From an uncultured virus (IMG/VR IMGVR_UViG_3300033069_000905) (taxonomy: Duplodnaviria; Heunggongvirae; Uroviricota; Caudoviricetes): a stretch of 20,000 nucleotides of DNA. The translations under genes and the position numbers were made by a program. The stretch covers positions 111,954 to 131,953 of the IMG/VR virus record IMGVR_UViG_3300033069_000905, one strand, 5' to 3'. Of the stretch, positions 1 to 19,031 are shown piece by piece; within the stretch, counting starts at the first letter, position 1; every line of letters starts with the position of its first letter. Under the pieces are notes generated by a model. It had not been told where the DNA came from. It did not search any database and saw only the letters and a program-made list of their open reading frames with translations.

Positions 1-15
1 ATACATAATCGCCAT
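1..15 (-). CDS. 5' end of a gene running off the left edge (MAIMY...)
   Basis: ATG at 15-13, preceded by the CGGAGTG RBS seen at other genes here and by the promoter at 46-74. Confidence 0.55.
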
Positions 16-45
16 TTCGCACTCCGTTGCAGTTAATTTGTTAGA

Positions 46-74
46 AGTATAGTCCGTTTTATTCAGTTTGTCAA
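46..74 (-). promoter_or_regulatory. sigma70-type promoter
   Basis: TTGACA-17 bp-TATACT on the minus strand, intergenic. Confidence 0.85.
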
Positions 75-140
75 GCACAGTGCTATCACTGACACCCTTA
101 GAGTCGCCAGTAAACACCGACGACAGCAACCCGAATTTTT

Positions 141-983
141 TCAGAACCCCCAAACGTTGCCTTTTACCTTGACCGGGGTTACGCTACATGTCTGTACGTA
201 CCCATCCGAGCCGTGACCCTTTGTTGACTTTGCAATAACAGAGTGCCCCTTCTGTAAACCTGACGAAGAAAAGTCTAGCTCCCTGTTCGCATAAAAACCC
301 TTATCCACACCCAACGCGGAGTAATACTTATCTTCGTACTCACCGTACCGTGCCGCTATGGGGTAAGTTTTTGACGGGGCAACCTTGTCGATACCAAAGT
401 GCTTGTTGAGCCAATCAATCTGCTTTTGACTCTCTACCGCTTTTTTGCAGTAGTTTGTTCGCACGTACTCAATGGCGTTTTTGTTGCCCGTCATGTGCAT
501 AACCAGAGCAGCCAGCACCGTACCCGTTCTTCCGTGTCCGCCAATGCACCCCAAGTGCACCTTCTTCCCTGATTTCAAGGCGTCTTCAAGATAGCCCAGC
601 AGCTTCCTGAATTCAACGATGTTGTCAGGAACACCGCTGTCTACGATATGGAATTCGAAGGCGATACGACCAGACCACGGATAGATTTTGAACTGTTCCA
701 TGCTCCGCTCAAAGCCCACGTAAACATCGGCGTCTTTAACCACGGGGTCTAAACATGACCCACCGTAAATTTTGTAGTCACCTATTGCCAACGCGGGGTG
801 GCTGTGTGCACACTTCGGGAGAGTTGATTTAGTCACGCGCACAGGTGCTTTCGTTTTGCTGGTGCTGAACGTAGCTTTGGCGTCATTGAAAGGTATGACT
901 TTTCCTTTTGATGAGCCAGTACGACTCGCCAAAGCAAGGTCTTTTGCTTTCTTCCAAGAATCCCAATCCATCGGCTTGTTCAT
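141..983 (-). CDS. CX5R protein-tyrosine/dual-specificity phosphatase superfamily protein
   Basis: VHLGCIGGHGRTG P-loop, upstream IVDSGVP acid loop, downstream AIEYVR...AVESQKQ (Q-loop-like); low-complexity extensions at both ends. Confidence 0.85.
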   Translation of the reverse strand: MNKPMDWDSWKKAKDLALASRTGSSKGKVIPFNDAKATFSTSKTKAPVRVTKSTLPKCAHSHPALAIGDYKIYGGSCLDPVVKDADVYVGFERSMEQFKIYPWSGRIAFEFHIVDSGVPDNIVEFRKLLGYLEDALKSGKKVHLGCIGGHGRTGTVLAALVMHMTGNKNAIEYVRTNYCKKAVESQKQIDWLNKHFGIDKVAPSKTYPIAARYGEYEDKYYSALGVDKGFYANRELDFSSSGLQKGHSVIAKSTKGHGSDGYVQTCSVTPVKVKGNVWGF

Positions 984-1957
984 GCCGCACTCCGTTCAAT
1001 CACAGAAGCATACGATTTGGGCGTGACATAAATTTGTTTCTTCGCATACGCCTTAGAATACGCCCCGTGTGCTGCTACCTGTTTAGCTTTTTCACTTGGA
1101 TAATCACCCAAAGCGCCTAGCGCCTCTACCTTGAACCAATCAACATAAAGCGGGTCTGGGCAAGGCAAACAGGCATCAATAGCCGACAAAGCATCATGCA
1201 GAGCGTGCGTACAGTTACCAAGTTCACCGTTAGCTACGTACTCCCTAATCTGCCCCGAGCGCTGCACGTCAAGAATCTTCAGCAACTCTTTTGTGTAGTG
1301 GTCGTAGAGCATGCCCTTGTTGAACATCGGGCCGTTGTTGTGTGCAAGCGACCACGACAAGTCATTCATCAATTCCAGAGAAATTTCACCGAAAACGACT
1401 TTCCTCAGAACTTCAGCGATTTCAGCCCACGGCTTCCCACCAAAGTTGTTTGGGTTGCCCCACTTCTTGAACACGTCAACAATCCCCGCCACGTACTCGC
1501 CCAAAGACACACCGCTGAGCGTAGACGCGCAGCCATCTTTCATGTAATCCGCCGCTGTACTTGACGAGGCGTTACTTTTTAGCCCCTTGATGAACTCAGT
1601 GATCTTGTACTGCGGGTCAAGCTTAGCAATACAGTGTGAAGGGGCGTGCCTAGCTTCGCGTGTAATAATGGTAAGGATGTAGTAGAACAGGCGAGCAGAA
1701 CTTTCAGACGCTTTTTTCAGATACAACCGAGCCAAGGCGTCCGCTTCTTCGGACAGATTTTCTTTTTTGTCGAATTGTGAACCCAGACGGCCAAAAGCGT
1801 CGTTGAGAAGATAGAAAAGAATCGCTTCTTCTTCAACACCGACTGACGTATTCGCCTTGAGGTATTTTGAGAGTTGCTGTGCCGTAGACACCAGTGGAGT
1901 CCCACTAACGTCTTGCTGCTTGAATAGCAACGCCTTTTTGTAATGCTCTAAATTCAT
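980..1957 (-). CDS. hypothetical protein, 325 aa, mostly helical
   Basis: Long ORF with CGGAGTG RBS before ATG 1957, its own promoter and an ATGA overlap with the phosphatase gene; motif-like segments FGGKPW and LAHNNGPMFNKG; family not recognised. Confidence 0.8.
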   Translation of the reverse strand: MNLEHYKKALLFKQQDVSGTPLVSTAQQLSKYLKANTSVGVEEEAILFYLLNDAFGRLGSQFDKKENLSEEADALARLYLKKASESSARLFYYILTIITREARHAPSHCIAKLDPQYKITEFIKGLKSNASSSTAADYMKDGCASTLSGVSLGEYVAGIVDVFKKWGNPNNFGGKPWAEIAEVLRKVVFGEISLELMNDLSWSLAHNNGPMFNKGMLYDHYTKELLKILDVQRSGQIREYVANGELGNCTHALHDALSAIDACLPCPDPLYVDWFKVEALGALGDYPSEKAKQVAAHGAYSKAYAKKQIYVTPKSYASVIERSAA

Positions 1958-1985
1958 AATCACTCCGTTGATTCAGTATTGCTTG

Positions 1986-2014
1986 AGGATACTACACTGC
2001 CATAAGTTTGTCAA
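1986..2014 (-). promoter_or_regulatory. sigma70-type promoter
   Basis: TTGACA-17 bp-TATCCT, overlapping the stop codon of the upstream gene. Confidence 0.8.
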
Positions 2015-2460
2015 TAGAACAATGCAATTACTTTCGCCACTTCCAACGTCACCTTGGTTTTTAGGCTAGGGCTATAGTCCGTCACTAGCGCTTGTTGTTC
2101 TTTCGTTTCAATGGCGTGGCTCTTGTAGTTGTCTCGCACGTATTGAACGGCTTTTTCTTCGCCAAGCAGAGTCATCAGCGCACCAAAGAACAGGCCAGTC
2201 CGACCAATACCCCCCATGCACCCGACATACATCGGTTTTTTGCGTGCGATTGGGATAAGCGCTTGCCTGATCCCGCGATCCAAATCTTCTTTATCCGGCA
2301 CAGAAAAATCTTCTGTGGGGATGTCGATATTGCAAGGATGATTAATCTCTTTTGCCATCTTCACGCCGAAAAAACCATCAGGCTTGACACGGTAAGGGCC
2401 ACCCACAATCCTGCGGGGTGATCCACCAAAAGAGAAATCAAAATTTTGTACAGCAGACAT
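2011..2460 (-). CDS. minimal CX5R protein-tyrosine/dual-specificity phosphatase
   Basis: YVGCMGGIGRTG P-loop, IPTEDFSVP acid loop, AVQYVR...AIETKEQ. Confidence 0.85.
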   Translation of the reverse strand: MSAVQNFDFSFGGSPRRIVGGPYRVKPDGFFGVKMAKEINHPCNIDIPTEDFSVPDKEDLDRGIRQALIPIARKKPMYVGCMGGIGRTGLFFGALMTLLGEEKAVQYVRDNYKSHAIETKEQQALVTDYSPSLKTKVTLEVAKVIALFY

Positions 2461-2832
2461 TTATCGCCCTTTCGTCTTGCACTCTTGGCAAGGTATAGTG
2501 TTTCGTATTTCATTTGTCCCGTGGCACTTACGACAGTTCTTGTCTTTACCACAACAGTCACAATCGTCTATCACGAGAATCCGTTTTGTGTCATTGCAGA
2601 ATGCACAACGCACATATTGTTTATGAGTATATACCTGTGGTTCTGGTTTGTCAAGCACTTCAACGTGCGGCTTGTGCCTAACTACACCCCGCAAGTACCC
2701 ACGACCTTCTGTACGCACGTCTGTACGCCCATCAATCCGTTTTCTTCGCGGTGTGTGCGGAGTAACAACCGTTGGTGTGGTGGGTGCGGCCTCAACCGGC
2801 GAAGGCTTACTGGTACTGTAGCGTACTGTCAA
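2461..2832 (-). CDS. Cys-rich zinc-finger protein (DnaJ-CR-like CxxC repeats)
   Basis: CAFC, CDCC, CRKCHG and CQEC in the C-terminal half; start uncertain (TTG 2832 chosen to limit overlap). Confidence 0.55.
   Translation of the reverse strand: MTVRYSTSKPSPVEAAPTTPTVVTPHTPRRKRIDGRTDVRTEGRGYLRGVVRHKPHVEVLDKPEPQVYTHKQYVRCAFCNDTKRILVIDDCDCCGKDKNCRKCHGTNEIRNTIPCQECKTKGR
2626..2654 (-). promoter_or_regulatory. sigma70-type promoter (intragenic, upstream of the small phosphatase gene)
   Basis: TTGACA-17 bp-TATACT with the same TTGACAAAC context as the intergenic promoters. Confidence 0.7.
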
Positions 2833-3115
2833 CTCGTTTGTCTCGATTGTTGTCGCGTAGGATGACGACAGAACGTGGGGCGCTGATAAGTATGTGGGCT
2901 TGTGTTCTGGTCTTCTCGTGGTCAGGAAGCCCAACGCCTACATAAACATCGGGGATGACCTCAATGTAATCCACCGCATCAAGCACGAACTCAGTGCCCC
3001 TCACAGACACCACCATCTCATCTTTACGAGGGGATATATACACGACAGTCAACGGAGTGTCCCCAAGGTAAATCACCCTACCCTCAGACACCCCCAAAGA
3101 TAATCCTTTACCCAT
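2807..3115 (-). CDS. CsrA/RsmA-like RNA-binding protein (divergent, with internal insertion)
   Basis: N-term LSLGVSEGRVIYLGD resembles CsrA LILTRRVGETLMIGD; C-term AHILISAPRSVVILR resembles VRIGIxAPKxVxxHR. Confidence 0.55.
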   Translation of the reverse strand: MGKGLSLGVSEGRVIYLGDTPLTVVYISPRKDEMVVSVRGTEFVLDAVDYIEVIPDVYVGVGLPDHEKTRTQAHILISAPRSVVILRDNNRDKRVDSTLQYQ

Positions 3116-3116
3116 A

Positions 3117-3524
3117 TTAACGCCCCATCAATCGTTTAGCTGTGTCCGTGGTGATCCAAGTGCTGCCGCCGACGATGCCGCGCTTGTAGTCGGTTATTTC
3201 AACAAGACCCTTGTATCTGAGAATAGTAAGTTGTGATGCCACATCCGAACTGGTCTGTGCAACTTCCGCGCTTTGGTTAACCAGTTCAGTAACATGCTTG
3301 GTGCTTGCGGGTTCAATGGCAAATAACGCGCCCAAGGCACACAAAAGTTTTGTTCCGCGTCTTGGTAGAGTGACTTCTTCTTCGATGTCAATATGGTCAG
3401 TCTGACTACCATCCGCATACTTCGATTGAACCAGTTTTAGAAAACCACAAAAGCATTTTAGAAAAACGCCCGTGTGGTCTTCGATATACCGCGCAGAAAC
3501 GCTACAGCACTTAGGACACTCCAT
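3117..3524 (-). CDS. Zn-ribbon plus winged-HTH putative transcription regulator
   Basis: CPKC...CFCG followed by the wHTH pattern STKHVTELV...SSDVASQLTILRYKGLVE...GGSTW; start may lie up to 75 bp further upstream. Confidence 0.65.
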   Translation of the reverse strand: MECPKCCSVSARYIEDHTGVFLKCFCGFLKLVQSKYADGSQTDHIDIEEEVTLPRRGTKLLCALGALFAIEPASTKHVTELVNQSAEVAQTSSDVASQLTILRYKGLVEITDYKRGIVGGSTWITTDTAKRLMGR

Positions 3525-3595
3525 GTCAATCCCCCCGCAGAACTCCACGGGGTTAAATTGTACGAAGTTATTTGAATTGTAAATAGTCATGTTAA

Positions 3596-5710
3596 TCAAG
3601 CACTCAGAAGGGACTTCAAAACAACGTCTTCAGAAGCAACCAACTTCTGATAAGAAACAACTGAAGGAACGCTATCCCCTGCAATCACTAGCTCCGTGAG
3701 GGGTTCGCCAGAAAAGCCTTTCAATTCAAGCACTTTACCCACGGCATCCTTTTTATTCGCCAAACCGTCGCCAAACTTCACGGTTCCTTTGGCGAAAAGC
3801 AAATCTTCGACAGAATTGACTTCTTCGATCAAAGAAAAACCAACATCCGTCAGCTTGCTTTTTAGCTTGTGGGTTACGCTAAAAAAGCCAAGATCAATCG
3901 CCACAGGCTTCGTCGGCTTAGCTTCAGCCAGACTGTCCAGCTTGCTTCTTGACACCTTTTTGTAGTCGAACAGTTCAAACAACTCAAACAGCGGCTTGTC
4001 ATATTCAACAACCGATTCGACTGACGTAGCGATAGAAATGATCCCTTCAAAGTCGTTAGCAACATGCTTCAGATGGTCGGGGTTCTTATCAAACTCACGT
4101 GTGTCAAGATAGCCGTAAGTACCCGATGTAACCAGCGGCACGAAAGAAACTTCACCGTGTACCCACGCAGATAACGTACTCAGTTCGGTATTGCTATCAG
4201 CCGCAATTATCGGAACATCGCTACCAACCCAAATGTTGCCCGTATCACCCTCAATCGTGATCTTGGTTTCACCTTCCGCGATGTAAGCACCGTTCAACGC
4301 CCAATAGTCGCCCCCCGAAACAGTCTTTCCCTGAGTCAAGTCAAGGCAACCGACCACGCAAACCTTGTCCATCCCGCGAGCCACCACCGCAGCGTGTGAG
4401 GATGATCCCCCTGTTTGGGTAAGAATCCCCACAGCCGCATTCATCCCTGCGATGTCATCAGGAGTGGTTTCCTTGGACAGCAGAATAACACTTTTTGTCT
4501 TCGCCAGTTCAACAGCTTTTTCCGATGAGAACACCGCCACGCCCGTAGCAAAACCCGTTGACGCAGCCAGTCCTTTACCCGTAGGGGCAATAGAAAACGA
4601 AGGATCAATCACAGGGCGACTTGCCATGAGGTATTGATCATACGAAATACGCGAGAATGCCGTCTTACGATCAATCACGCCCTCAAACACCAAGTCAACC
4701 GCCACCTTAACCGCAGCTTTTGCCGTGCGCTTGGCATTACGAGTTTGCAGGATAAACAGTTCACCGTCTTGAATAGTGAATTCAATATCTTGCATGTCGG
4801 CAAACGACTTTTCAAGCTTGTCAGCCGTTAGAATCAACTGTGCGAAGCTGTCAGTATTCCATTCAAGCATCGACTCTATCGGCAAAGGTGTACGCACACC
4901 AGAAACCACGTCTTCGCCCTGAGCGTTAACAAGGTACTCACCAACCGCCTTATTTTCGCCTGTAGCGGGGTTACGAGAAAAGAGAACACCCGTAGCTGAC
5001 TTGTCGTTCATGTTACCGAAAACCATTGCCTGAATAATACAAGCAGTCCCCAAGTCATGCGGAATCTTGTTCAGGTTACGATAGGTAATCGCACGGTCGG
5101 TATTCCACGAACCGTAAACCGCCTTGATTGCCCGACGCAATTGCATTTTGAACGTCTGTGGGAAGTCTGGCGTGATGCCAAGGAAAAGTTCGCAGATTAC
5201 TTTAAGGGATTGAACCGACAGTTCGGCGTCCGTAGAAACTTTCTCTACTTCTTTAACGTCATCCAGAATCGCTTCGTACTTGCTGGAAGAAATATTGAAC
5301 ACCACCGAACCGAACATCTGAATCAGACGACGATACGAGTCCCAAGCCGCACGTTCACCGATGCGCTTTTCCCACGCTTTAATCGTGGTTGAAGTCAGGC
5401 CAACGTTTAGGATTGTTTCGCACATGCCGGGGCAGCTAACCTTAGCGCCCGAACGAACAGAGAAAAGTGGCAGATAGCCAAACTTCTTTTCGATTTCATC
5501 AATGTAAGTATAGGCTTGCAGGGCAAGTGCCGCAGTGGACTCCGTACCCGCGTTGATACCCGCACAAAGCGTAGTGGGGAGAATGATTGCCGGGGGGACA
5601 TTGATCCCCAGACCAGCCATTTTCAAAAGGTTAAGCCCTTTACCCCCAAGAACGTCGATAGACGCTTCCGAAGGGGAACCAAAACCTACAGGGTAAAATT
5701 CAGCACTCAT
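3596..5710 (-). CDS. ppdK: pyruvate phosphate dikinase-like protein: ATP-grasp and phospho-His swivel domains, non-canonical C-terminus
   Basis: LGGKG, SVRSGA, QAMVFGN, NAQGEDVVSG, DIEF, LQTR and GGSSSHAAVVARG motifs; no PEP/pyruvate-barrel motifs; CGGAGTG RBS before ATG 5710. Confidence 0.9.
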   Translation of the reverse strand: MSAEFYPVGFGSPSEASIDVLGGKGLNLLKMAGLGINVPPAIILPTTLCAGINAGTESTAALALQAYTYIDEIEKKFGYLPLFSVRSGAKVSCPGMCETILNVGLTSTTIKAWEKRIGERAAWDSYRRLIQMFGSVVFNISSSKYEAILDDVKEVEKVSTDAELSVQSLKVICELFLGITPDFPQTFKMQLRRAIKAVYGSWNTDRAITYRNLNKIPHDLGTACIIQAMVFGNMNDKSATGVLFSRNPATGENKAVGEYLVNAQGEDVVSGVRTPLPIESMLEWNTDSFAQLILTADKLEKSFADMQDIEFTIQDGELFILQTRNAKRTAKAAVKVAVDLVFEGVIDRKTAFSRISYDQYLMASRPVIDPSFSIAPTGKGLAASTGFATGVAVFSSEKAVELAKTKSVILLSKETTPDDIAGMNAAVGILTQTGGSSSHAAVVARGMDKVCVVGCLDLTQGKTVSGGDYWALNGAYIAEGETKITIEGDTGNIWVGSDVPIIAADSNTELSTLSAWVHGEVSFVPLVTSGTYGYLDTREFDKNPDHLKHVANDFEGIISIATSVESVVEYDKPLFELFELFDYKKVSRSKLDSLAEAKPTKPVAIDLGFFSVTHKLKSKLTDVGFSLIEEVNSVEDLLFAKGTVKFGDGLANKKDAVGKVLELKGFSGEPLTELVIAGDSVPSVVSYQKLVASEDVVLKSLLSA

Positions 5711-5728: not shown

Positions 5729-5744
5729 TTGCAAGTAATTTCAA
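5729..5744. promoter_or_regulatory. recurrent operator-like motif TTGCAAGTAATTTCAA, copy 1
   Basis: Lies between the promoter and RBS of the dikinase gene; repeated at 9741, 13294 and 16906. Confidence 0.6.
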
Positions 5745-5751
5745 TAGCCCA

Positions 5752-5780
5752 AGTATAGCGCCCTGTTCTTGTTTTGTCAA
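5752..5780 (-). promoter_or_regulatory. sigma70-type promoter of the dikinase operon
   Basis: TTGACA-17 bp-TATACT. Confidence 0.85.
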
Positions 5781-5959
5781 GCTATATCAAGTGCATCGTG
5801 CACAGCTATCAGGAACCCCACAGAATCCACATCGGGGATCACGCCGTTTAGCAGTTCATCGCGTGTGCCCTCTAGCTCTTGGCGATCTATTTCTTCAAGG
5901 GGAGACTCCAATACAGACATCACCTTGCCTAGCAAGGATTCTACCTCACCTGCTTCCAT
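5777..5959 (-). CDS. small acidic hypothetical protein
   Basis: Fills the gap between the kinase gene and the promoter; overlaps the upstream stop. Confidence 0.6.
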   Translation of the reverse strand: MEAGEVESLLGKVMSVLESPLEEIDRQELEGTRDELLNGVIPDVDSVGFLIAVHDALDIA

Positions 5960-6500
5960 ATCTATCCTGTGTATGCCTGAAAAATTCAGCTAAGTATATG
6001 CCCATGCGTTGTTTTGTTCCACTGTTGTCATAGGTCGCGTCAACTTCAAACTCTTGTGTTTCGCTGGCATGGGATGATCCGGGAACGTCTTCTTCCTGCG
6101 GTCGGGTGACCCGTAGCAGTACACCATTGTTGTTACGTATCCAATTCGCTTCGTCGGGGAAACGCACGTCATCAAACACCACCGTCATGTGTTCTCTGAC
6201 CTTCCCTACGGCAAGTTTTGCTCTACGTACCCAGAAATCTTGTCCGAAGTTTTGACGCATACATTCGGTTCCTAGCTTCTGTAGCATTTCCCGCCTTGTA
6301 ATCCCCCAATAGGGATCAACTGCGCTTTTTCCTTGCGAGAAGTCTTCTGGCTTCAATCCAAAGAGGGAACACGCAGCCTCTTTCAACGGTGTGGCAAAGG
6401 ATAGCTTGCACACGAAAAACTGGCGAACCAGTTCATCAGCCGCAGTCGTCTTTCCCGCCCCCATTGCCCCCGCAATACCAATAATTATCCGCTTTGCCAT
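5946..6500 (-). CDS. deoxynucleoside monophosphate kinase (T4 gp1-like)
   Basis: P-loop GAMGAGKTT, SFATPLKE, REMLQKLGTE, FWV, DDVRFPDEA, HASE. Confidence 0.92.
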   Translation of the reverse strand: MAKRIIIGIAGAMGAGKTTAADELVRQFFVCKLSFATPLKEAACSLFGLKPEDFSQGKSAVDPYWGITRREMLQKLGTECMRQNFGQDFWVRRAKLAVGKVREHMTVVFDDVRFPDEANWIRNNNGVLLRVTRPQEEDVPGSSHASETQEFEVDATYDNSGTKQRMGIYLAEFFRHTQDRYGSR

Positions 6501-7987: not shown

Positions 7988-8016
7988 ATTATCACACGAT
8001 ACGCACAGTTTGTCAA
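7988..8016 (-). promoter_or_regulatory. sigma70-type promoter
   Basis: TTGACA-17 bp-GATAAT. Confidence 0.75.
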
Positions 8017-8483
8017 GAGTTAGGCAAGTAAATCCACTCTCGCCCTGCGGCTAACCATAAATCCATAGACGCACTGTGAGGGTACTGCTCAGCAAAAACG
8101 ATGCGCTTACACCCTGTCCCCAACAATGACTTAACGCAGCGAATACAAGGGGATGCAGTAACGTAAGCTGTGTATATTTTCCTTACGTTTTTACAATACA
8201 GCAAGGCGTTATCCTCTGCATGAAGGGCTTCACAGCCATCCAAGTTCGTACCTGAAGGGGCAAATGCCGCAGAACAGGCATGGGGATAAACCGCACCTAT
8301 CTCGTGGCTAACTGTGTCGCAGTTAGGCAAACCCGCAGCTTTCCCATTGTACCCTGTCGACATGATTCTGTTATGCTTGGTTACGATGACACAACCCACC
8401 TTACGCCGCAGACAACTCCCCCGTGCAGCTACGTCTTTGGCAATCTGCATAAAATACTCATCCCACGAGGGTCTAGTTTCCAT
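8013..8483 (-). CDS. dCMP deaminase (ComEB-like)
   Basis: RPSWDEYFM, RRKVGCVI, TGYNG, HAE and SPCIRC zinc-deaminase motifs. Confidence 0.93.
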   Translation of the reverse strand: METRPSWDEYFMQIAKDVAARGSCLRRKVGCVIVTKHNRIMSTGYNGKAAGLPNCDTVSHEIGAVYPHACSAAFAPSGTNLDGCEALHAEDNALLYCKNVRKIYTAYVTASPCIRCVKSLLGTGCKRIVFAEQYPHSASMDLWLAAGREWIYLPNS

Positions 8484-8859
8484 TTTTAATCCTTTTGTCT
8501 CGTTGAACAAACAACTCAGTGATCCCATCTATAGCCGCGTTGTAGTCATCAACCCACTTCGCTGAATCAACCTTCCTCCACGGCTTAGCCGCACGTTTAA
8601 CAGCACACCACGCATAGCCCGCTGTCTTCGGCCACTTCTTCACCGCTTCGATATACAAGTCCAAGTCTTCTGCGGCTAAGTTCTCCGCATCAGCCCCCGG
8701 CACAAAAATATCGTTGCAATTAATTGCAGGATAGGCACCGTCGTCCCACGTTTCTTTTATGCTGTTGTAGCTGGTCAGGAAAATCTGATCTTCCACCAGC
8801 AACCAGAAAATCTTGCGTGCCGTTTCAAGTTCTGTGGTCAATACGTTCAACTCAGACAT
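8473..8859 (-). CDS. hypothetical protein
   Basis: ORF overlapping both neighbours in operon fashion. Confidence 0.75.
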   Translation of the reverse strand: MSELNVLTTELETARKIFWLLVEDQIFLTSYNSIKETWDDGAYPAINCNDIFVPGADAENLAAEDLDLYIEAVKKWPKTAGYAWCAVKRAAKPWRKVDSAKWVDDYNAAIDGITELFVQRDKRIKNGN

Positions 8860-10420: not shown

Positions 10421-12520
10421 CTACGACGCTTTCAGAATCTTCGCAAAATCCATTTTGGTGATGTTGGCGTCTTTGGGGTCAAACTTACCGTTGTTTCCAA
10501 CAGCAGACTTTATTTGTTCGGGATTAAAAGCAACTATCTCATCATACTTGGAGTCAGCAGTATTGCCGTGGATAAAGATTCCGTCAAAGCCCTTCTCAGC
10601 TAGATTAACCGACTCCAAATCATTCTGTTCTTCTGTGTTTTCGTTGTAGCGGTCAATATCAGCAGATGTTGCTATGTACGGCTTCTTTATACTAAGATAC
10701 ACAGGCATGACGTTAGCCCCGGAACCACCACCCCGCGTAAACCTGTCTGCAAACTCAGGGTTGTTAGAAAAGAAAAACCCCATCCAATGCGTTTTTGACC
10801 CGCCAGTTTTCTGTGGTGCCTTATAGCTAAACTCAGTGAAGTCAGAATTCGTTCCGTGATACATCACCCGTGGTTTCCCTTCTTTATCTACTACCTTACT
10901 CCTTTTGAACCACGCCTTGAATTCTTTTGTTTCTGTTTGCCCTGTATGGTCTATCCACTGATTGCCGTGGAAAGCATGACCGTCCTTATCCCCTTTCAGT
11001 AGCTGTGAAAAATCACGTTTTAAGGTACGCCCAACTAAACTAACTTTCCTGTCTGTGGGGATGGCGCGCCACTTTCCATCCCCCGCTTTATAATGAACGG
11101 CAGTTAATTGCACTTCTTTCCACTTCTTTGTATTGATGTAGGAATTACCCATCCCGAAGCTAGGTGGGTTGTCTTCTGAGTCCCAACCAACAGGCTGTTT
11201 TCCTTCCAAGACAACAGAAACAGAGAAAGAGACACGCTTCTGTCCGTCAGCAAAACGGCTCTCTACTTCTTTGCGGTTTTCCCCATCAATACCTTCCTCT
11301 GTATAAGCAAACTCTTTTGAATCATCTAAACCAGCACCGTCTTGGTGGGAGTACCAGTAGTTTCCTACGCGCTTGGTGTCGACCATACCTAAAACGTCTT
11401 CGGCTGTGGCCGTTCCGTCTTTTATCTTATGGTAAAGGCCGATGTTAGCTTCCACGTTAGCCTCTATGCCTCTGGATATGGTGTGTCCTGATTTACTCGC
11501 GTCAACAGGGCTTAAGTCAGACCACTGATTCCCACGGAAAGGATGGCCTACCTTATCACCCTTCTGTGTAGCACCGACTTGAGCCAGCGTCTTTGAAAAC
11601 ACCTTGGGGAAGCTAAACATCAAGTCCAATGCTTTTCTAACGGGGATCGACATGCGGTTGATGTTAACCTTACCGTCTGGATTCAATTCCAAGTTCCTAG
11701 CCCAACGGTTCGTACCGTCCAGAACATAATTATCCTTTGACACGGTTATCGGCTTACTCAAAGCTTCGGGGGTCAGTTGTTTCGCTTGTTCCACATTAAA
11801 GTGCTTCTGTGTGGGCTTCAAAGAAGAAAGGTGTACCTGTTCTGGTGTAATGGTGATACCTTTCTTCTTAGCGAATTCAGTGAACTCAGGAAAGTCTGAG
11901 GATTGAATCTGCGGCATGTCTTTTCGATCAATGCCAAGAGAATCTGAAAAATTACCCTTTTCATCCCACAGCGGTTTTTTATTAGAAAACGCCTTGTCTA
12001 TGGCCGTAGCAATACGATGTGTATTATCTCCATCCTTCGCTGCTTCTGCTAATATGTCCTTTACAGGGACTTCTTTTATTAGTTTCGAAGTGAACCCCGC
12101 ACCGTCGCTAGGGAAGCTGTAGCCTGTGCCGAAGAAATACTGATCCCGCCCGACTTGGGGGTTAGTTCCTTTTTCTTCTGGGTTTCCCTTGAAACCAATA
12201 TGCTCGTACTCCCCTGTATCTTTGGTGAGCGTGACTTCATGGGAGTAAATCTTCTCGTCCTTGATTTCGCCTTCTTCTTTCCAGTTCAGTATATGGGCTT
12301 CGATCCCGAACGCATTGCCCCCGTTGACACCTTTCAGTTCGGGGGACGTTCCAACACGATAAACAATAAATTTGGTTCCTGCTTTAAGAACAGGATTTTT
12401 CTGTACGGCATCCCATCCTTCGGCACTGACGTTAGCCTTGGCAAAACGTCCACCCTTACTGGAACCTGCGGGTTCATGGTAAGGGTCGGATTTCATTATC
12501 CGTGAGAACGTCGTGCCCAT
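10421..12520 (-). CDS. modular polyvalent-type protein with ParB/Srx-like and C-terminal ADP-ribosyltransferase-like (ART-PolyVal) domains
   Basis: LKPTQ...PITVSKDNYVLDGTNRW (ParB-like); VMYHGT...GFFFS...VMPVYLSIKKP...GFDGI...EIVAFNPEQIKSA (ART-PolyVal-like); repeated KGDKxGHxFxGNQW linkers. Confidence 0.75.
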   Translation of the reverse strand: MGTTFSRIMKSDPYHEPAGSSKGGRFAKANVSAEGWDAVQKNPVLKAGTKFIVYRVGTSPELKGVNGGNAFGIEAHILNWKEEGEIKDEKIYSHEVTLTKDTGEYEHIGFKGNPEEKGTNPQVGRDQYFFGTGYSFPSDGAGFTSKLIKEVPVKDILAEAAKDGDNTHRIATAIDKAFSNKKPLWDEKGNFSDSLGIDRKDMPQIQSSDFPEFTEFAKKKGITITPEQVHLSSLKPTQKHFNVEQAKQLTPEALSKPITVSKDNYVLDGTNRWARNLELNPDGKVNINRMSIPVRKALDLMFSFPKVFSKTLAQVGATQKGDKVGHPFRGNQWSDLSPVDASKSGHTISRGIEANVEANIGLYHKIKDGTATAEDVLGMVDTKRVGNYWYSHQDGAGLDDSKEFAYTEEGIDGENRKEVESRFADGQKRVSFSVSVVLEGKQPVGWDSEDNPPSFGMGNSYINTKKWKEVQLTAVHYKAGDGKWRAIPTDRKVSLVGRTLKRDFSQLLKGDKDGHAFHGNQWIDHTGQTETKEFKAWFKRSKVVDKEGKPRVMYHGTNSDFTEFSYKAPQKTGGSKTHWMGFFFSNNPEFADRFTRGGGSGANVMPVYLSIKKPYIATSADIDRYNENTEEQNDLESVNLAEKGFDGIFIHGNTADSKYDEIVAFNPEQIKSAVGNNGKFDPKDANITKMDFAKILKAS

Positions 12521-15109: not shown

Positions 15110-15675
15110 TTTCTTCTTCCCACTTCAAACGCAGCACGCAAAACGGCGTGTGCTTCATCACCAAGGTCAGGGTCAGCGTCATCACCTTCTTCATGCCAGA
15201 ATTCTTGGATCAAAGTTCTGTCGGGAAGACGCTTCCATACGCACTGGTCAGGAAAATCAATGTTCAAGCGCAAGGTTTTGATCAACTCGTAGCGATCCCC
15301 CAAGTTCTTCAGCGGATTCCATACATCCCCATTGATCAGCATCATACCGTCGACGGGGAACTTTTTGTTCTCCTGTACGTAGATATAATCCATGGCAATC
15401 GCAGCCGCTTCTAATAGTTCACGATCCGTCACTTGCAATCCTTTCTTATTGTGGGCATCAATGTCGGTATTGCTTGGTCTGCAAGGTGTATAAGGTACAA
15501 ACTCGTAGCGTCTTCCAGCGTCATCAGCCGCTAGGCGTAGTGCATCTTCCGCGCTTATGATTTGCCAGTCCCCCCATGTATTCGGGCCATTCTCGTGACC
15601 ATCAGGAAATCCAAGGTTGTAGACTCGCCACAACCATTGATCATACAGTGGCGTAGTTTCACGATCCGTCATCAT
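15106..15675 (-). CDS. hypothetical protein, probable in-frame fusion of two small genes
   Basis: GGAG RBS before ATG 15675/15672; internal AAGGA plus GTG start at 15432 (VTDRELLEAAA). Confidence 0.65.
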   Translation of the reverse strand: MMTDRETTPLYDQWLWRVYNLGFPDGHENGPNTWGDWQIISAEDALRLAADDAGRRYEFVPYTPCRPSNTDIDAHNKKGLQVTDRELLEAAAIAMDYIYVQENKKFPVDGMMLINGDVWNPLKNLGDRYELIKTLRLNIDFPDQCVWKRLPDRTLIQEFWHEEGDDADPDLGDEAHAVLRAAFEVGRRK

Positions 15676-16021
15676 CACTCCATAGTTTATGGACGTACAC
15701 ACGCAAGCCCCTACGTCTGGCACTATCAATCATCCCCTTGGTGCCTTTGCTGTCCCCATCCCACAATGCAATCAGGGCTTCAGCGTGCTTTGACATTTCA
15801 TCATTCCTGATATGCCCTGCCCTTTTTCCATAGCGTTCCCAATTCGCAGGGAACTGCTCGCACGGAACACCGAACTCCATCGCCCATGCTTCGCCCATCT
15901 GATCCACACCACGGGCAGTTCCGCTGATGACTACCGTGGGCGTCCAGCCACATAGCTTCAACGCCCGTAGCAGTTCCCTCTTGTCGTAGCATCCACGGCT
16001 ACCCGCGATGATTGTTCTCAT
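15659..16021 (-). CDS. SLOG-superfamily protein (YspA/DUF2493-like)
   Basis: IIAGSR, VVISGTARGVD, FPANWERYGKRAGHIRN, ALWDGDSKGT. Confidence 0.88.
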   Translation of the reverse strand: MRTIIAGSRGCYDKRELLRALKLCGWTPTVVISGTARGVDQMGEAWAMEFGVPCEQFPANWERYGKRAGHIRNDEMSKHAEALIALWDGDSKGTKGMIDSARRRGLRVYVHKLWSDDDGS

Positions 16022-17346: not shown

Positions 17347-17973
17347 CTAAAAATTTAACTTGTGCGGCCAGTTATTTGTTTTTATGAAGTCGTCCCTTGC
17401 AATAGCTGCTTCAAGTTCTGTATCAAACGTCCCGACGTAGTACGCTACACCACTACGCTTTATGGAAGCCTCCCACTTACTTCCTCTTAAAGATACACCT
17501 AAGTATTTTGAAGACGTGTTCGCTGCTTTTCTTTGGTTTGCGGCTTGAGTGTTCCAATCAGACCACTTGCAGTTATCAGGTTCGTAATTACCTTCTACAT
17601 GTATTCTATCAATTGTTAGTTCATCTGTGTATCCCGCTTTAATCGCCCACTCTCTAAAAACAGCAAAATTGTCCCAAGTGTGCGCGTAAGTAATGCCCAA
17701 CGCACCATAATTCTTATAGTCTGTTGCTTTTGTGTCGGTGCAGCGTCTTCGCATGTTTATCCACGTTTGATATAGCCTTGTTTTTTTACCCCCGTGTGTG
17801 GTTACTGCATCCCTGTTGGCGCAACCGCAGGATGTTGTTATTCCCGTCCTTAAGGACGACGCTCGCACTTTTGTTAAGTTTCCACAGACGCATAAGCACT
17901 CCCATTTAAGGTGCCTGTCTGTTTTAGCTGCCGGTGCTACTACCGTAAGCCTTCCGAATGTTTTTCCTATCAT
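17347..17973 (-). CDS. HNH homing endonuclease with C-terminal AP2 domain
   Basis: GKTFGRLTV...CLCVCG...SCGC; TIDRI...GNYEPDNCKW...QAAN; SKYLGV...KWEASI...GTFDTELEAA. Confidence 0.9.
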   Translation of the reverse strand: MIGKTFGRLTVVAPAAKTDRHLKWECLCVCGNLTKVRASSLRTGITTSCGCANRDAVTTHGGKKTRLYQTWINMRRRCTDTKATDYKNYGALGITYAHTWDNFAVFREWAIKAGYTDELTIDRIHVEGNYEPDNCKWSDWNTQAANQRKAANTSSKYLGVSLRGSKWEASIKRSGVAYYVGTFDTELEAAIARDDFIKTNNWPHKLNF

Positions 17974-18356
17974 GCGTAGGTGCCCCAATAATTTTTAGAA
18001 TCGCCTAAGTAGGTTCTCCAAAACTCGTCAAAAAAGCAGTTTTCTGATGCGCTAGAAAATAGGGGCGCTACCGCGCTATCACATAAATTTGCGAGTCCGC
18101 AGCCTACCCGCGTGACATTAAACTCAAGGTCGGGGTTAGCTTTGGCATACTCAACAAAGCCGTCCACGTACTGCTTGATAACGGTCAGGGGGAGCGTCCT
18201 CAGTCGTCCGTCTTTAGTGGGGATAGCATAGGCATTACCTGTTCTACCCACGCCAACGCCGTATACAGCCCCGTAGTTAAGCTTGGCGTAGAGTGCTGCA
18301 CCCTTACCATGACGGCCATCAAAATTGCTCCCGAATACAAAGCACCTACTTGTCAT
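17970..18356 (-). CDS. A1S_2505-family phage protein (macrodomain-like)
   Basis: FVFGSNxxGRHGKGAA, AYAIPTK and FNVTRVGCGLA motifs. Confidence 0.8.
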   Translation of the reverse strand: MTSRCFVFGSNFDGRHGKGAALYAKLNYGAVYGVGVGRTGNAYAIPTKDGRLRTLPLTVIKQYVDGFVEYAKANPDLEFNVTRVGCGLANLCDSAVAPLFSSASENCFFDEFWRTYLGDSKNYWGTYA

Positions 18357-18999
18357 TGCATTTAAACCTCTGTTTTGATGTATTTATTGGCGTCATAATG
18401 GAATCTTCTAGCGTCATACCTGTCCTACGACGTTCTTTTACTAAACCGTACCTGATCCCTTTTATACGGCACCACTCGCCAATTGAGTGTGTCTCATCAC
18501 CCATCACTACACGGGCTGTGTGTGATTGATTCTGTGCTTGTTCTAGCTTAGTTGCCCACCTACAATTACTAGGCTCGTAGCCTTTAGCGTTGTCATTACG
18601 TTCAATCGTGTGCTTATGCGGTCGCTCTCCCATGTCTGCCAAGAAATTAGTGAACCCATCATCACCAGACCATCTATCGCACACTTTAACATGGGCGTAC
18701 CGTGGGTTAACTATAACCCGTTGGTGCATCGCTTGCCATGAACGATAGGCACCTGATTGGGCACCACGAATAGCATTAGAATGCTTAGTGTTCTTGGCAG
18801 CAACAAGTTCAGACCTATAACAACCACACGATGTTATGTTTAAAAACCTAACCCAATTGACGGTAGCCTCAATCACAGTCCCGCAAGAGCATAGAAACAC
18901 GGCTTGACGACGGTTTTTATACGAAGGTAGTTCATACTGGTACGTTAGCCTAGTGTTGGGAATCAAATCCCCCTTTTTATAGATAATGCGTGCTGGCAT
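18346..18999 (-). CDS. HNH homing endonuclease
   Basis: CSCG...TSCGC; YRSWQAMHQR, VCDRW, FLADMGERP, TIERNDNAKGYEPSNCRWAT..EQAQN. Confidence 0.9.
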   Translation of the reverse strand: MPARIIYKKGDLIPNTRLTYQYELPSYKNRRQAVFLCSCGTVIEATVNWVRFLNITSCGCYRSELVAAKNTKHSNAIRGAQSGAYRSWQAMHQRVIVNPRYAHVKVCDRWSGDDGFTNFLADMGERPHKHTIERNDNAKGYEPSNCRWATKLEQAQNQSHTARVVMGDETHSIGEWCRIKGIRYGLVKERRRTGMTLEDSIMTPINTSKQRFKCNDK

Positions 19000-19031
19000 G
19001 TGCAAACTAATCCGTGTTTGGAAACCTAGCT

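Follow-up and report, generated by a model that had tools for sequence, protein, structure and literature searches.

The 20,000-nucleotide stretch analysed here (the window) forms the 20-kb right end of one 131,953-bp contig from an uncultured tailed virus (IMG/VR IMGVR_UViG_3300033069_000905, positions 111,954 to 131,953). At 3596..5710, on the minus strand, it carries a gene for a 704-residue protein resembling pyruvate, phosphate dikinase (PPDK), which we call PPDKL. The sequence evidence supports the view that PPDKL is not a working PPDK and that its phosphoenolpyruvate (PEP)/pyruvate site is gone. We propose, with a probability of roughly 0.6, that PPDKL instead supplies phosphate from ATP to a phage phosphotransfer system made up of several proteins, among them U327, a protein of 327 residues encoded nearby, and, as the weakest part of the proposal, that the target of this system is a nucleotide or a DNA-linked group. 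The dikinase is obligatorily embedded in a gene block with two CX5R cysteine phosphatases, U327, a further protein, U326, and DNA polymerase A. In addition, structure modelling predicts that PPDKL binds U327 with its phospho-histidine loop on the most conserved U327 patch, which supports the proposal.

An intact dikinase engine at the N-terminus

The dikinase gene and its parts are as follows.

3596..5710, minus strand: PPDK-like dikinase gene (PPDKL), 704 aa plus stop (Pfam, PHROG, AlphaFold2 and Foldseek)
4586..5710, minus strand: ATP-grasp nucleotide-binding domain, residues 1 to ~375 (Pfam PPDK_N, PF01326, 1.2e-41, above the gathering score)
4211..4585, minus strand: phospho-histidine swivel domain, residues ~376-500, with His439 at 4394-4396 (Pfam mobile domain)
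3599..4210, minus strand: linker helix and predicted compact TIM-like barrel, residues 501-704, without PEP/pyruvate motifs (AlphaFold2, VIA-align, ESM Atlas)

An initial annotation, made from the letters of the window, had described the nucleotide-binding motifs and the phospho-histidine as intact, and its coordinates were correct. GGKG lies at residue 22, SVRSG at 84, DIEF at 308 and LQTR at 321, and 31 homologues with 40-89% identity show no variation at G22, G23, K24, S84, R86, S87, G88, E310, F311, L321, Q322, R324 or H439. Pfam places the mobile domain of PEP-utilizers (PF00391) at residues 406-491 (1.1e-19). A full-length AlphaFold2 (AF2) model computed from the 31-row alignment had a mean predicted local distance difference test score (pLDDT) of 89.4 and was matched by Foldseek to the PPDK structure 1kbl at E 2.3e-55. 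An alternative TTG start at 5734 would lengthen the protein by 8 residues; we prefer the ATG because a GGAG stands ~7 nt 5' of it and because the closest homologues (an identical 704-aa database record and proteins at 80-89% identity) begin at the same Met.

Similarity to PPDK ends, as the initial annotation had also observed, after the linker helix LSTLSAWV (residues 510-517, nt 4183-4160). The PPDKL family profile aligns with PPDK at E 5e-208 over the first ~510 residues, PHROG 18609 ('kinase') covers only residues 17-513, and the 57 phage records that match PPDKL by tblastn have match ends at residues 447-549, none of them reaching 80% query coverage. The frame stays open for 187 codons beyond residue 517, essentially the length first reported. 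In one close homologue, P0009 (1,104 aa; 69% identity over 62% of PPDKL), the swivel domain falls into two Pfam stretches with ~400 extra residues, which raises the possibility of an intein inside the phospho-histidine domain; P0009, P0098 and other long homologues have the same two Pfam domains and no others.

PPDKL lacks the PEP/pyruvate site of PPDK

Compared with PPDK (EC 2.7.9.1; C. symbiosum 1KBL/1DIK, 9PZL), PPDKL has the ATP-grasp domain, the swivel histidine, the linker and a predicted TIM-like domain in the same position. The PEP-utilizers_C barrel (PF02896), on the other hand, was found by Pfam neither in PPDKL nor in any of its best 120 database homologues. We scanned for four barrel motif patterns (RTE[HF], G[TIV]M[IVL]E, G[TS]NDL and [GS][IVLM]CGE) and found none in PPDKL and none in the same homologues (0/120), in line with the absence of barrel motifs reported initially. 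Among 68 short viral-contig copies the four patterns occurred 0, 0, 0 and 1 times; in true full-length PPDKs on viral contigs, which served as a positive control in the same scan, they occurred in 8/8, 7/8, 8/8 and 8/8.

Family models gave the same picture. With the PPDK equivalog TIGR01828, PPDKL reached 521.3 bits, where the cutoff asks for 843.45, and matched model positions 7-523 of 865. It also fell short of the cutoffs of the PEP synthase model TIGR01418 (81.4 vs 739.75 bits), the Enzyme I model TIGR01417 (26.9 vs 341.7) and the rifampin phosphotransferase model NF041857 (42.9 vs 999), and it missed the PigC and RedH models by a similarly wide margin. The miss was narrow for NF004531 (PRK05878), a model of 534 positions named pyruvate, phosphate dikinase (404.9 vs 456): PPDKL matches its positions 19-481 at E 5e-121 and shares its short PPDK-like architecture ending soon after the swivel, but nothing in the model corresponds to the 185 barrel residues of PPDKL. 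The predicted barrel is itself short, with ~185 residues against ~340 in PPDK, and is devoid of RTEH, GTMIE, GTNDL and CGE; the catalytic histidine is followed by 267 residues in PPDKL and by 240-300 in most homologues, compared to 424-427 in true PPDKs. Because the barrel motifs are absent, the TIGR01828 cutoff is failed and the tail profile has no similarity to PPDK barrels, we judge the PPDK label to be wrong, as the initial annotation had argued.

That annotation had also warned that such a gene would be taken for a glycolytic auxiliary gene, and this has happened: portions of PMC12038007, PMC10671443 and PMC9229204 present PPDKL homologues as PPDK auxiliary metabolic genes, a label that the present evidence contradicts. 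According to the relevant portion of PMC12038007, residues 1-527 alone overlap PPDK 1GGO, and the remainder is called a conserved TIM barrel, into which PEP was docked. Our literature search found no published proposal of another function for phage PPDKL homologues.

The C-terminal tail is probably a reduced TIM-like barrel

AF2 modelled residues 500-704 with a pLDDT of 93.1 and a predicted template modelling score of 0.87, as a linker helix followed by eight short strands and helices in alternation. This resembles the arrangement of an eight-unit TIM barrel, although the fold scores are middling and closure of the barrel is putative. When the tail was compared with 48,161 chains by VIA-align, all of the 50 best rows were TIM barrels (Z 6.4-8.8, root-mean-square deviation 4.1-6.5 Å). 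The top row was a corrinoid protein (Z 8.8, 165 aligned), and the barrels of PEP synthase (9dae; Z 8.1, 193 aligned), Enzyme I (6vu0; Z 7.8, 179 aligned) and maize PPDK (Z 7.6, 200/205 aligned) were also found, a Z near 8 being a value that may mean merely a widespread arrangement. The independent model of the ESM Atlas gave TIM-barrel families in all 10 structure rows (TM 0.51-0.56), and Foldseek gave nothing at E ≤ 0.001 with the tail, its weak matches being TIM barrels (best 2.6e-3, TM 0.34).

We conclude that the tail is probably a reduced TIM-like barrel of ~185 residues, spanning residues ~520-704. Two statements of the initial annotation must be revised on this point, namely that the enzyme lacks the barrel and that its C-terminus is unrecognised: a small TIM-like barrel is probably still present, in a region modelled with high confidence, and what is missing is the PEP/pyruvate site. 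The possibility, also raised there, that this region folds as a PEP-binding barrel is borne out as far as a TIM-like barrel is predicted, but not as regards PEP binding, given the missing PEP motifs.

Is the tail derived from the PEP barrel? Judging from position alone, it is probably a shrunken descendant, and such a descent is plausible. Residual homology was rejected, as an hhalign comparison of the 109-sequence tail profile with the tails of 8 true PPDKs had a probability of 0.3%, with a PPDK set that is shallow (Neff 1.7). In structure, the barrels of PEP synthase, Enzyme I and PPDK score no better in VIA-align than unrelated TIM barrels. The tail is nonetheless conserved rather than decaying, decay being an outcome that had been considered at the outset: the tails of two homologue sub-groups align with an hhalign probability of 99.9%, and three residues stand out over 109 sequences (D571, kept in 93%; G624, 90%; G668, 85%). 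No other position exceeds 80%; conservation is otherwise low, and the 109-sequence alignment contains no conserved Arg/Lys/His cluster of the sort required to hold a phosphate or a carboxylate.

The dikinase is embedded in a conserved gene block

Downstream of the dikinase, the block comprises the following genes; putative promoters are given at the end of the list.

3117..3599, minus strand: 160-aa Cys-rich accessory protein, its start overlapping the dikinase stop; 20/55 testable loci
2807..3115, minus strand: p102, a conserved small protein of 102 aa; 54/55 testable loci, always directly 3' of the dikinase
2461..2934, minus strand: p157, a 157-aa open reading frame (ORF) with a C-terminal Cys-rich segment, start uncertain, overlapping p102; 34/55 loci
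2011..2460, minus strand: PTP1, CX5R cysteine phosphatase 1, 149 aa, CMGGIGR (PHROG 17568, 4e-36); 55/55 loci
980..1963, minus strand: U327, 327 aa, predicted docking partner of the phospho-histidine loop (PHROG 20946, 2.8e-60); 55/55 loci
141..983, minus strand: PTP2, CX5R cysteine phosphatase 2, 280 aa, CIGGHGR (Pfam, PHROG); 55/55 loci
1..153, minus strand: 5' end of the U326 gene (whole gene, genome 111126-112106); 55/55 testable loci
L005:12942-18467 (genome 104941-110466), minus strand, left of the window: DNA polymerase A gene, 1,841 aa, after U326 and one ORF
5752..5780, minus strand: sigma-70-like promoter TTGACA-17-TATACT, 42 nt 5' of the dikinase ATG, 11/12 consensus positions
2626..2654, minus strand: second exact TTGACA-17-TATACT site, 5' of the PTP1 gene
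46..74, minus strand: third exact TTGACA-17-TATACT site, within the longest ORF for U326 and 5' of its conserved Met47

To survey the block, 80 loci were taken from 179 IMG/VR relatives. A dikinase ORF was called in 76 of these and the other 4 were dropped; the 76 consist of 68 short-form loci and 8 loci with a true PPDK (794-905 aa). Short-form loci with at least 7 kb downstream were considered testable (55/68), and the 13 others were excluded as truncated. PTP1, U327, PTP2 and U326 were each present in all 55 testable loci, accompanied by p102 in 54, DNA polymerase A in 51, p157 in 34 and the 160-aa protein in 20. No block gene was found anywhere in the eight true-PPDK loci (0/8), five of which have at least 8 kb downstream. 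A reverse search that started from U327 found the dikinase upstream in 10/10 bacterial-genome loci, on prophage-like or phage-sized contigs.

The gene order is dikinase, 160-aa Cys-rich protein, p102, p157, PTP1, U327, PTP2, U326, one ORF, DNA polymerase A and portal, and the annotations of four other phages show the block in this order: Vibrio phage SIO-2, Stenotrophomonas phage DLP3, Rhizobium phage RHph_Y1_11 and Rhodobacter phage RcZahn. The 160-aa protein and p102 have no match in Pfam, PHROG or NCBIfam, p157 belongs to no family in Pfam or PHROG, and PADLOC returned no match for any block protein. Exact TTGACA-N17-TATACT occurs at three sites in the 131,953-bp genome, all of them in the block and on the coding strand, and had 0 matches in 200 shuffles; this pattern suggests that host sigma-70 RNA polymerase transcribes the block from strong putative promoters that belong to the block itself. 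The DNA polymerase A protein has Intein_splicing, PT-HINT, NUMOD4 and HNH_3 matches between its exonuclease and polymerase parts, and probably carries one or two inteins with homing endonucleases.

Two phosphatases and two unannotated families accompany the dikinase

Both phosphatases look active from their sequences. The C-x5-R loop is present in both, with single-sequence Pfam scores at or under the cutoffs (weak DSP/PTP matches of ~1e-5 for PTP1), and is kept in 57/57 PTP1 and 55/55 PTP2 homologues, the PTP2 loop reading C[IMLV]GGHGR in 54. Searched against the PDB, the PTP1 family profile matched small protein-tyrosine phosphatases (PTPs; 5z59 at 6.7e-10, DUSP23 at 1.8e-6) and the PTP2 profile matched 5z59 at 1.1e-11, so that both families are nearest to small archaeal or bacterial PTPs and DUSP23. 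The CX5R phosphatases of the block are labelled 'thymidylate synthase' in PHROG 17568, NC_016567 (VPEG_00063) and MT110073 (DLP3_141). This label looks wrong because of the PTP-type C-x5-R loop and the matches to solved PTPs.

U327 has no match in Pfam or NCBIfam and none among PDB profiles at E ≤ 10. ESM Atlas returned nothing named for it, with an Atlas model of U327 that is itself poor (pLDDT 0.36). The family is large: a library of 1.84 billion proteins holds 2,450 representative clusters that match U327 at E ≤ 0.001, and the best 150 of the 2,450 representatives are all 310-409 aa long; no fused form was found at E ≤ 1e-5 among proteins of 729-2080 aa, which is weak evidence. Its 24 invariant residues include R102, E103, R105, H106, G175, G176, W179, D201, H208 and N209, as well as N215, K216, D232, Q234 and R235, and its conserved motifs are TRESRH, GGxxW, HNNG...NK and DxQRxG. 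U326 likewise has no Pfam match and no PDB-profile match at E ≤ 10. In an alignment of 36 U326 homologues, M47 is nearly invariant and conservation is confined to the C-terminal ~110 residues; 3 of the 36 have a ribosomal L7/L12 C-terminal domain (best E 7.2e-7).

The phospho-histidine loop is predicted to dock on U327

We predicted the complex of PPDKL residues 345-704 with U327 and obtained ipSAE scores of 0.81, 0.78 and 0.83, the best of 3 controls scoring 0.00. At least 86% of contacts were common to the runs, and the partner pLDDT was at least 79. The mark set for this tool is attained by 116/157 solved complexes and by 2/215 mismatched pairs. We know of no similar complex, and it therefore seems unlikely that the pass stems from the memory of the predictor.

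In the predicted interface, the His loop 433-448, which contains His439, lies on U327 residues 51, 54, 197-198, 201-202, 234-237 and 281-283, and the barrel helix 568-579 lies on U327 residues 11-15 and 86-90, D571 contacting 11-12. His439 is placed beside D201 of U327 (1.1 Å expected error) and V442 beside the invariant Y51. Among the 25 lowest-error pairs, 10 U327 residues face the His loop 433-443, and 7 of these (Y51, N54, E197, D201, R235, G237 and L282) are invariant or nearly so (Fisher p 2e-5). The initial annotation had suggested that the phosphate probably goes to a new acceptor in place of pyruvate. This stands as probable, except that the models place the predicted acceptor site on U327, a separate and always co-encoded protein, and not in the tail.

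Relation to known dikinases

Rifampin phosphotransferase, the PigC/RedH ligases, glucan water dikinase, phenylphosphate synthase and the HpeHI-type split dikinases all share the ATP-grasp and swivel-histidine engine and use acceptors other than pyruvate; PPDKL has weak NCBIfam matches to RPH (rifampin phosphotransferase), PigC and RedH, confined to the ATP-grasp part. None of these enzymes is known to possess a TIM-like tail or to be accompanied by U327 or by a phage block linked to a polymerase. In RPH the substrate domain comes before the swivel, whereas in PPDKL the swivel precedes the third domain, and the structure 5hv1 matches only the N-terminal part of PPDKL. Split dikinases have a separate acceptor-binding subunit, and plant dikinases are paired with dual-specificity glucan phosphatases; we regard these as precedents for a partner subunit and for a pairing of dikinase and dual-specificity phosphatase. 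As for PPDKL as a split dikinase, the predicted complex scores 0.81 vs 0.00, and U327 has no sequence kinship to known dikinase subunits in Pfam, PDB or NCBIfam.

Enzyme I and PEP synthase have the same swivel-histidine domain, and the tail counts the C-terminal barrels of both among its best matches by structure. Enzyme I gives its phosphate to a separate protein, as predicted here for U327; it differs in drawing phosphate from PEP instead of ATP and in having no ATP-grasp domain.

A proposed phosphotransfer scheme

How might the block work? By the chemistry of the family, ATP would load its beta-phosphate onto His439 with release of AMP. The loaded His loop would then dock on the most conserved U327 surface, the small barrel serving as a docking platform through helix 568-579 with D571, both as predicted by the models. 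U327 would provide the acceptor site, as a substrate-binding protein or as the molecule that itself becomes phosphorylated, and the two phosphatases would remove phosphate from the product or an intermediate. The target would be a nucleotide or a DNA-linked group; this is the weakest step and is drawn from context.

We make this guess about the target because the block abuts the replicative polymerase and because the DNA of phages DLP3 and DLP5 resists most restriction enzymes. These two are cultured carriers of the block with heavily modified DNA: as stated in parts of the respective reports, DLP3 DNA was resistant to 15/15 restriction enzymes (PMC7326821) and DLP5 DNA was cut by only 4/36 (PMC5834331), and in those parts the authors left the modification unidentified (PMC7326821, PMC5834331). 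The block is a candidate cause only. Nucleotide or DNA modification remains our leading guess, and the activity, binding and expression invoked in the scheme are predictions from sequence and models.

Several observations weigh against the proposed scheme. The link to DNA comes from one phage genus, and the phages concerned also carry glycosyltransferases and other enzymes that could explain the resistance. Pfam detected no thymidylate-synthase-like hydroxymethylase or known base-modifying family in most of the 162 called ORFs, the scan having covered all but 13 of the 105 ORFs upstream of the window (twelve plus-strand ORFs and a 952-aa ORF at genome 56020-58878) and all but a few in the window region. 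The phosphatases are most like small PTPs, and a protein target fits at least as well as a nucleotide. The complex score is the model's own confidence and is calibrated only roughly for our own unpaired alignments; enrichment over the whole U327 interface is weak (11/40 conserved positions, p 0.04), and structure predictors are possibly biased towards conserved surfaces. Finally, a few acidic or polar residues at strand ends of the tail are moderately kept in the 109 sequences (D536 49%, T537 67%, and Asp in 70% at position 559), and an acceptor site may accordingly lie within the barrel.

Alternative explanations

A more specific version of the scheme would make the dikinase and U327 a two-protein phosphotransferase that activates a nucleotide or DNA group by (pyro)phosphorylation, with U327 as a new transferase family, the phosphatases as trimming enzymes and an unidentified DNA hypermodification as the outcome. 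We advance it only tentatively. Lee et al. reportedly described, in 2018 and 2021, a phage thymidine hypermodification with a 5-hydroxymethyldeoxyuridine (5-hmdU) DNA kinase and aGPT-Pplase transferases, and as a functional analogy the two systems may be alike in that a kinase activates a DNA group, a second enzyme substitutes it and the DNA becomes restriction-resistant. The kinase of that pathway is, however, a P-loop enzyme and not a dikinase. A direct assignment, with the dikinase as 5-hmdU kinase and U327 as aGPT-Pplase, was rejected: the 36-sequence U327 alignment has no relevant Pfam match at E ≤ 1, only scattered chance matches, and no thymidylate-synthase-like gene occurs among the Pfam-scanned ORFs.

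Alternatively, the block could be a protein phospho-switch in which the dikinase phosphorylates U327 (for example at the invariant Y51, D201 or H208), U326 or the neighbouring polymerase, and the PTPs erase the mark. The phosphatase profiles, which best match small PTP or dual-specificity phosphatases (5z59/5z5a, SsoPTP, DUSP23), are in its favour, as is the predicted interface, with His439 set by D201 (1.1 Å) and V442 by Y51. Within the same superfamily, Enzyme I passes its phosphate to a protein, HPr, which we count for this explanation together with the Enzyme I barrel found among the structural matches of the tail. Yet the 24 invariant residues of U327 are rich in Arg, His, Lys and Asn, are spread over the whole chain and resemble an enzyme active site more than a simple acceptor, and no regulatory target is evident. 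Moreover, small PTP-fold enzymes act on many non-protein phosphoesters, and on balance we consider a phospho-switch doubtful.

The tail barrel could also hold the acceptor site for a new small substrate, with U327 acting later in the pathway and making no contact with the dikinase. Most TIM barrels have an active site, and PPDK, PEP synthase and Enzyme I have their second one in the barrel, which we count in favour of this idea along with the moderately conserved positions D536, T537 and S559 at strand ends. Conservation of the barrel is low, however: only D571, G624 and G668 exceed 80%, the query has Ser at position 559 where 70% of tails have Asp, and D571 is predicted to lie at the U327 contact. 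We regard a barrel acceptor as unlikely.

More unlikely still is a counter-defence or nucleotide-pool device that has nothing to do with DNA modification, for example one that makes or destroys a phosphorylated signalling or salvage metabolite and lets the phage escape host immunity. The genome is rich in conflict genes (ART-PolyVal, SLOG/YAcAr, Acb3-like, ADP-ribosyltransferase, zeta-toxin-like and HD), and the best Pfam matches of the phosphatases are DSP-PTPase families named for toxin and NAD-kinase contexts. Those matches, however, lie under the curated cutoffs except for one at 27.2 vs 27, PADLOC is blank for all block proteins, and the fixed position of the block between packaging/early and polymerase/portal genes in very different phages favours a core, replication-linked role over that of an accessory anti-defence gene.

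The least likely explanation, and a very improbable one, is that PPDKL is a true PPDK or PEP synthase of minimal size, with which the phage would raise glycolysis or gluconeogenesis of its host, as the phage papers have it: the TIM-like tail does occupy the position of the PEP barrel (PEP synthase, Enzyme I and PPDK barrels at Z 7.6-8.1, 179-200 aligned) and PEP has been docked into it in the relevant part of PMC12038007, but all four barrel motifs are absent, the tail has no profile similarity to PPDK barrels, the TIGR01828 and TIGR01418 cutoffs are failed, unrelated TIM barrels score as high or higher (corrinoid protein, Z 8.8), only 267 residues follow the histidine instead of 424-427, and the block accompanies 55/55 testable short forms and none of the true PPDKs on viral contigs.

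Other genes of the phage genome

The contig carries tailed-phage genes for portal, prohead protease, capsid, tape-measure chaperone, RecA, DnaB, primase and DNA polymerase A, and its minus strand holds 145/162 called ORFs of the 131,953-bp genome. Conflict genes are abundant in this phage genome. Features outside the block, in the window and elsewhere in the genome, are listed below.

Window 5946-6500, minus strand: deoxynucleotide monophosphate kinase, directly upstream of the block (PHROG 139, 3.3e-45)
Window 8013-8528, minus strand: dCMP deaminase, directly upstream of the block (Pfam 1.7e-21)
Window 10421-12520, minus strand: 699-aa polyvalent-type protein with a C-terminal ART-PolyVal ADP-ribosyltransferase (1.9e-28), its middle matching PHROG 2859
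Window 15659-16021, minus strand: small protein with a YAcAr (SLOG-family) domain (3.9e-13)
Window 17347-17988 and 18346-19005: two HNH endonuclease genes
L007:775-1659, elsewhere in the genome, minus strand: Acb3-like CBASS inhibitor (1.2e-33)
L007:4255-5508, elsewhere in the genome, minus strand: zeta-toxin-like kinase domain protein (domain match)
L007:5505-11267, elsewhere in the genome, minus strand: 1,920-aa protein with an ADP-ribosyltransferase exoenzyme-type domain at its end (domain match)
L007:12182-12811, elsewhere in the genome, minus strand: HD_5 phosphohydrolase (domain match)

The deoxynucleotide monophosphate kinase and the dCMP deaminase serve the nucleotide pool, and it is possible, though uncertain, that they act together with the block.

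Significance

PPDKL is a variant of the dikinase family inside an uncharacterised and widespread phage system. The dikinase marks a strictly conserved gene block that contains two unannotated protein families. Docking of the His loop on U327, as predicted by the models, would reduce the acceptor question to two purified proteins. Should the target be DNA or nucleotides, this would reveal which chemistry protects Stenotrophomonas phages considered for therapy against so broad a range of restriction enzymes. If the DNA-hypermodification version were true, it would explain the near-total restriction resistance of carriers such as DLP3 and DLP5, and the block would constitute a second, mechanistically independent phage route to phosphorylation-activated DNA modification.

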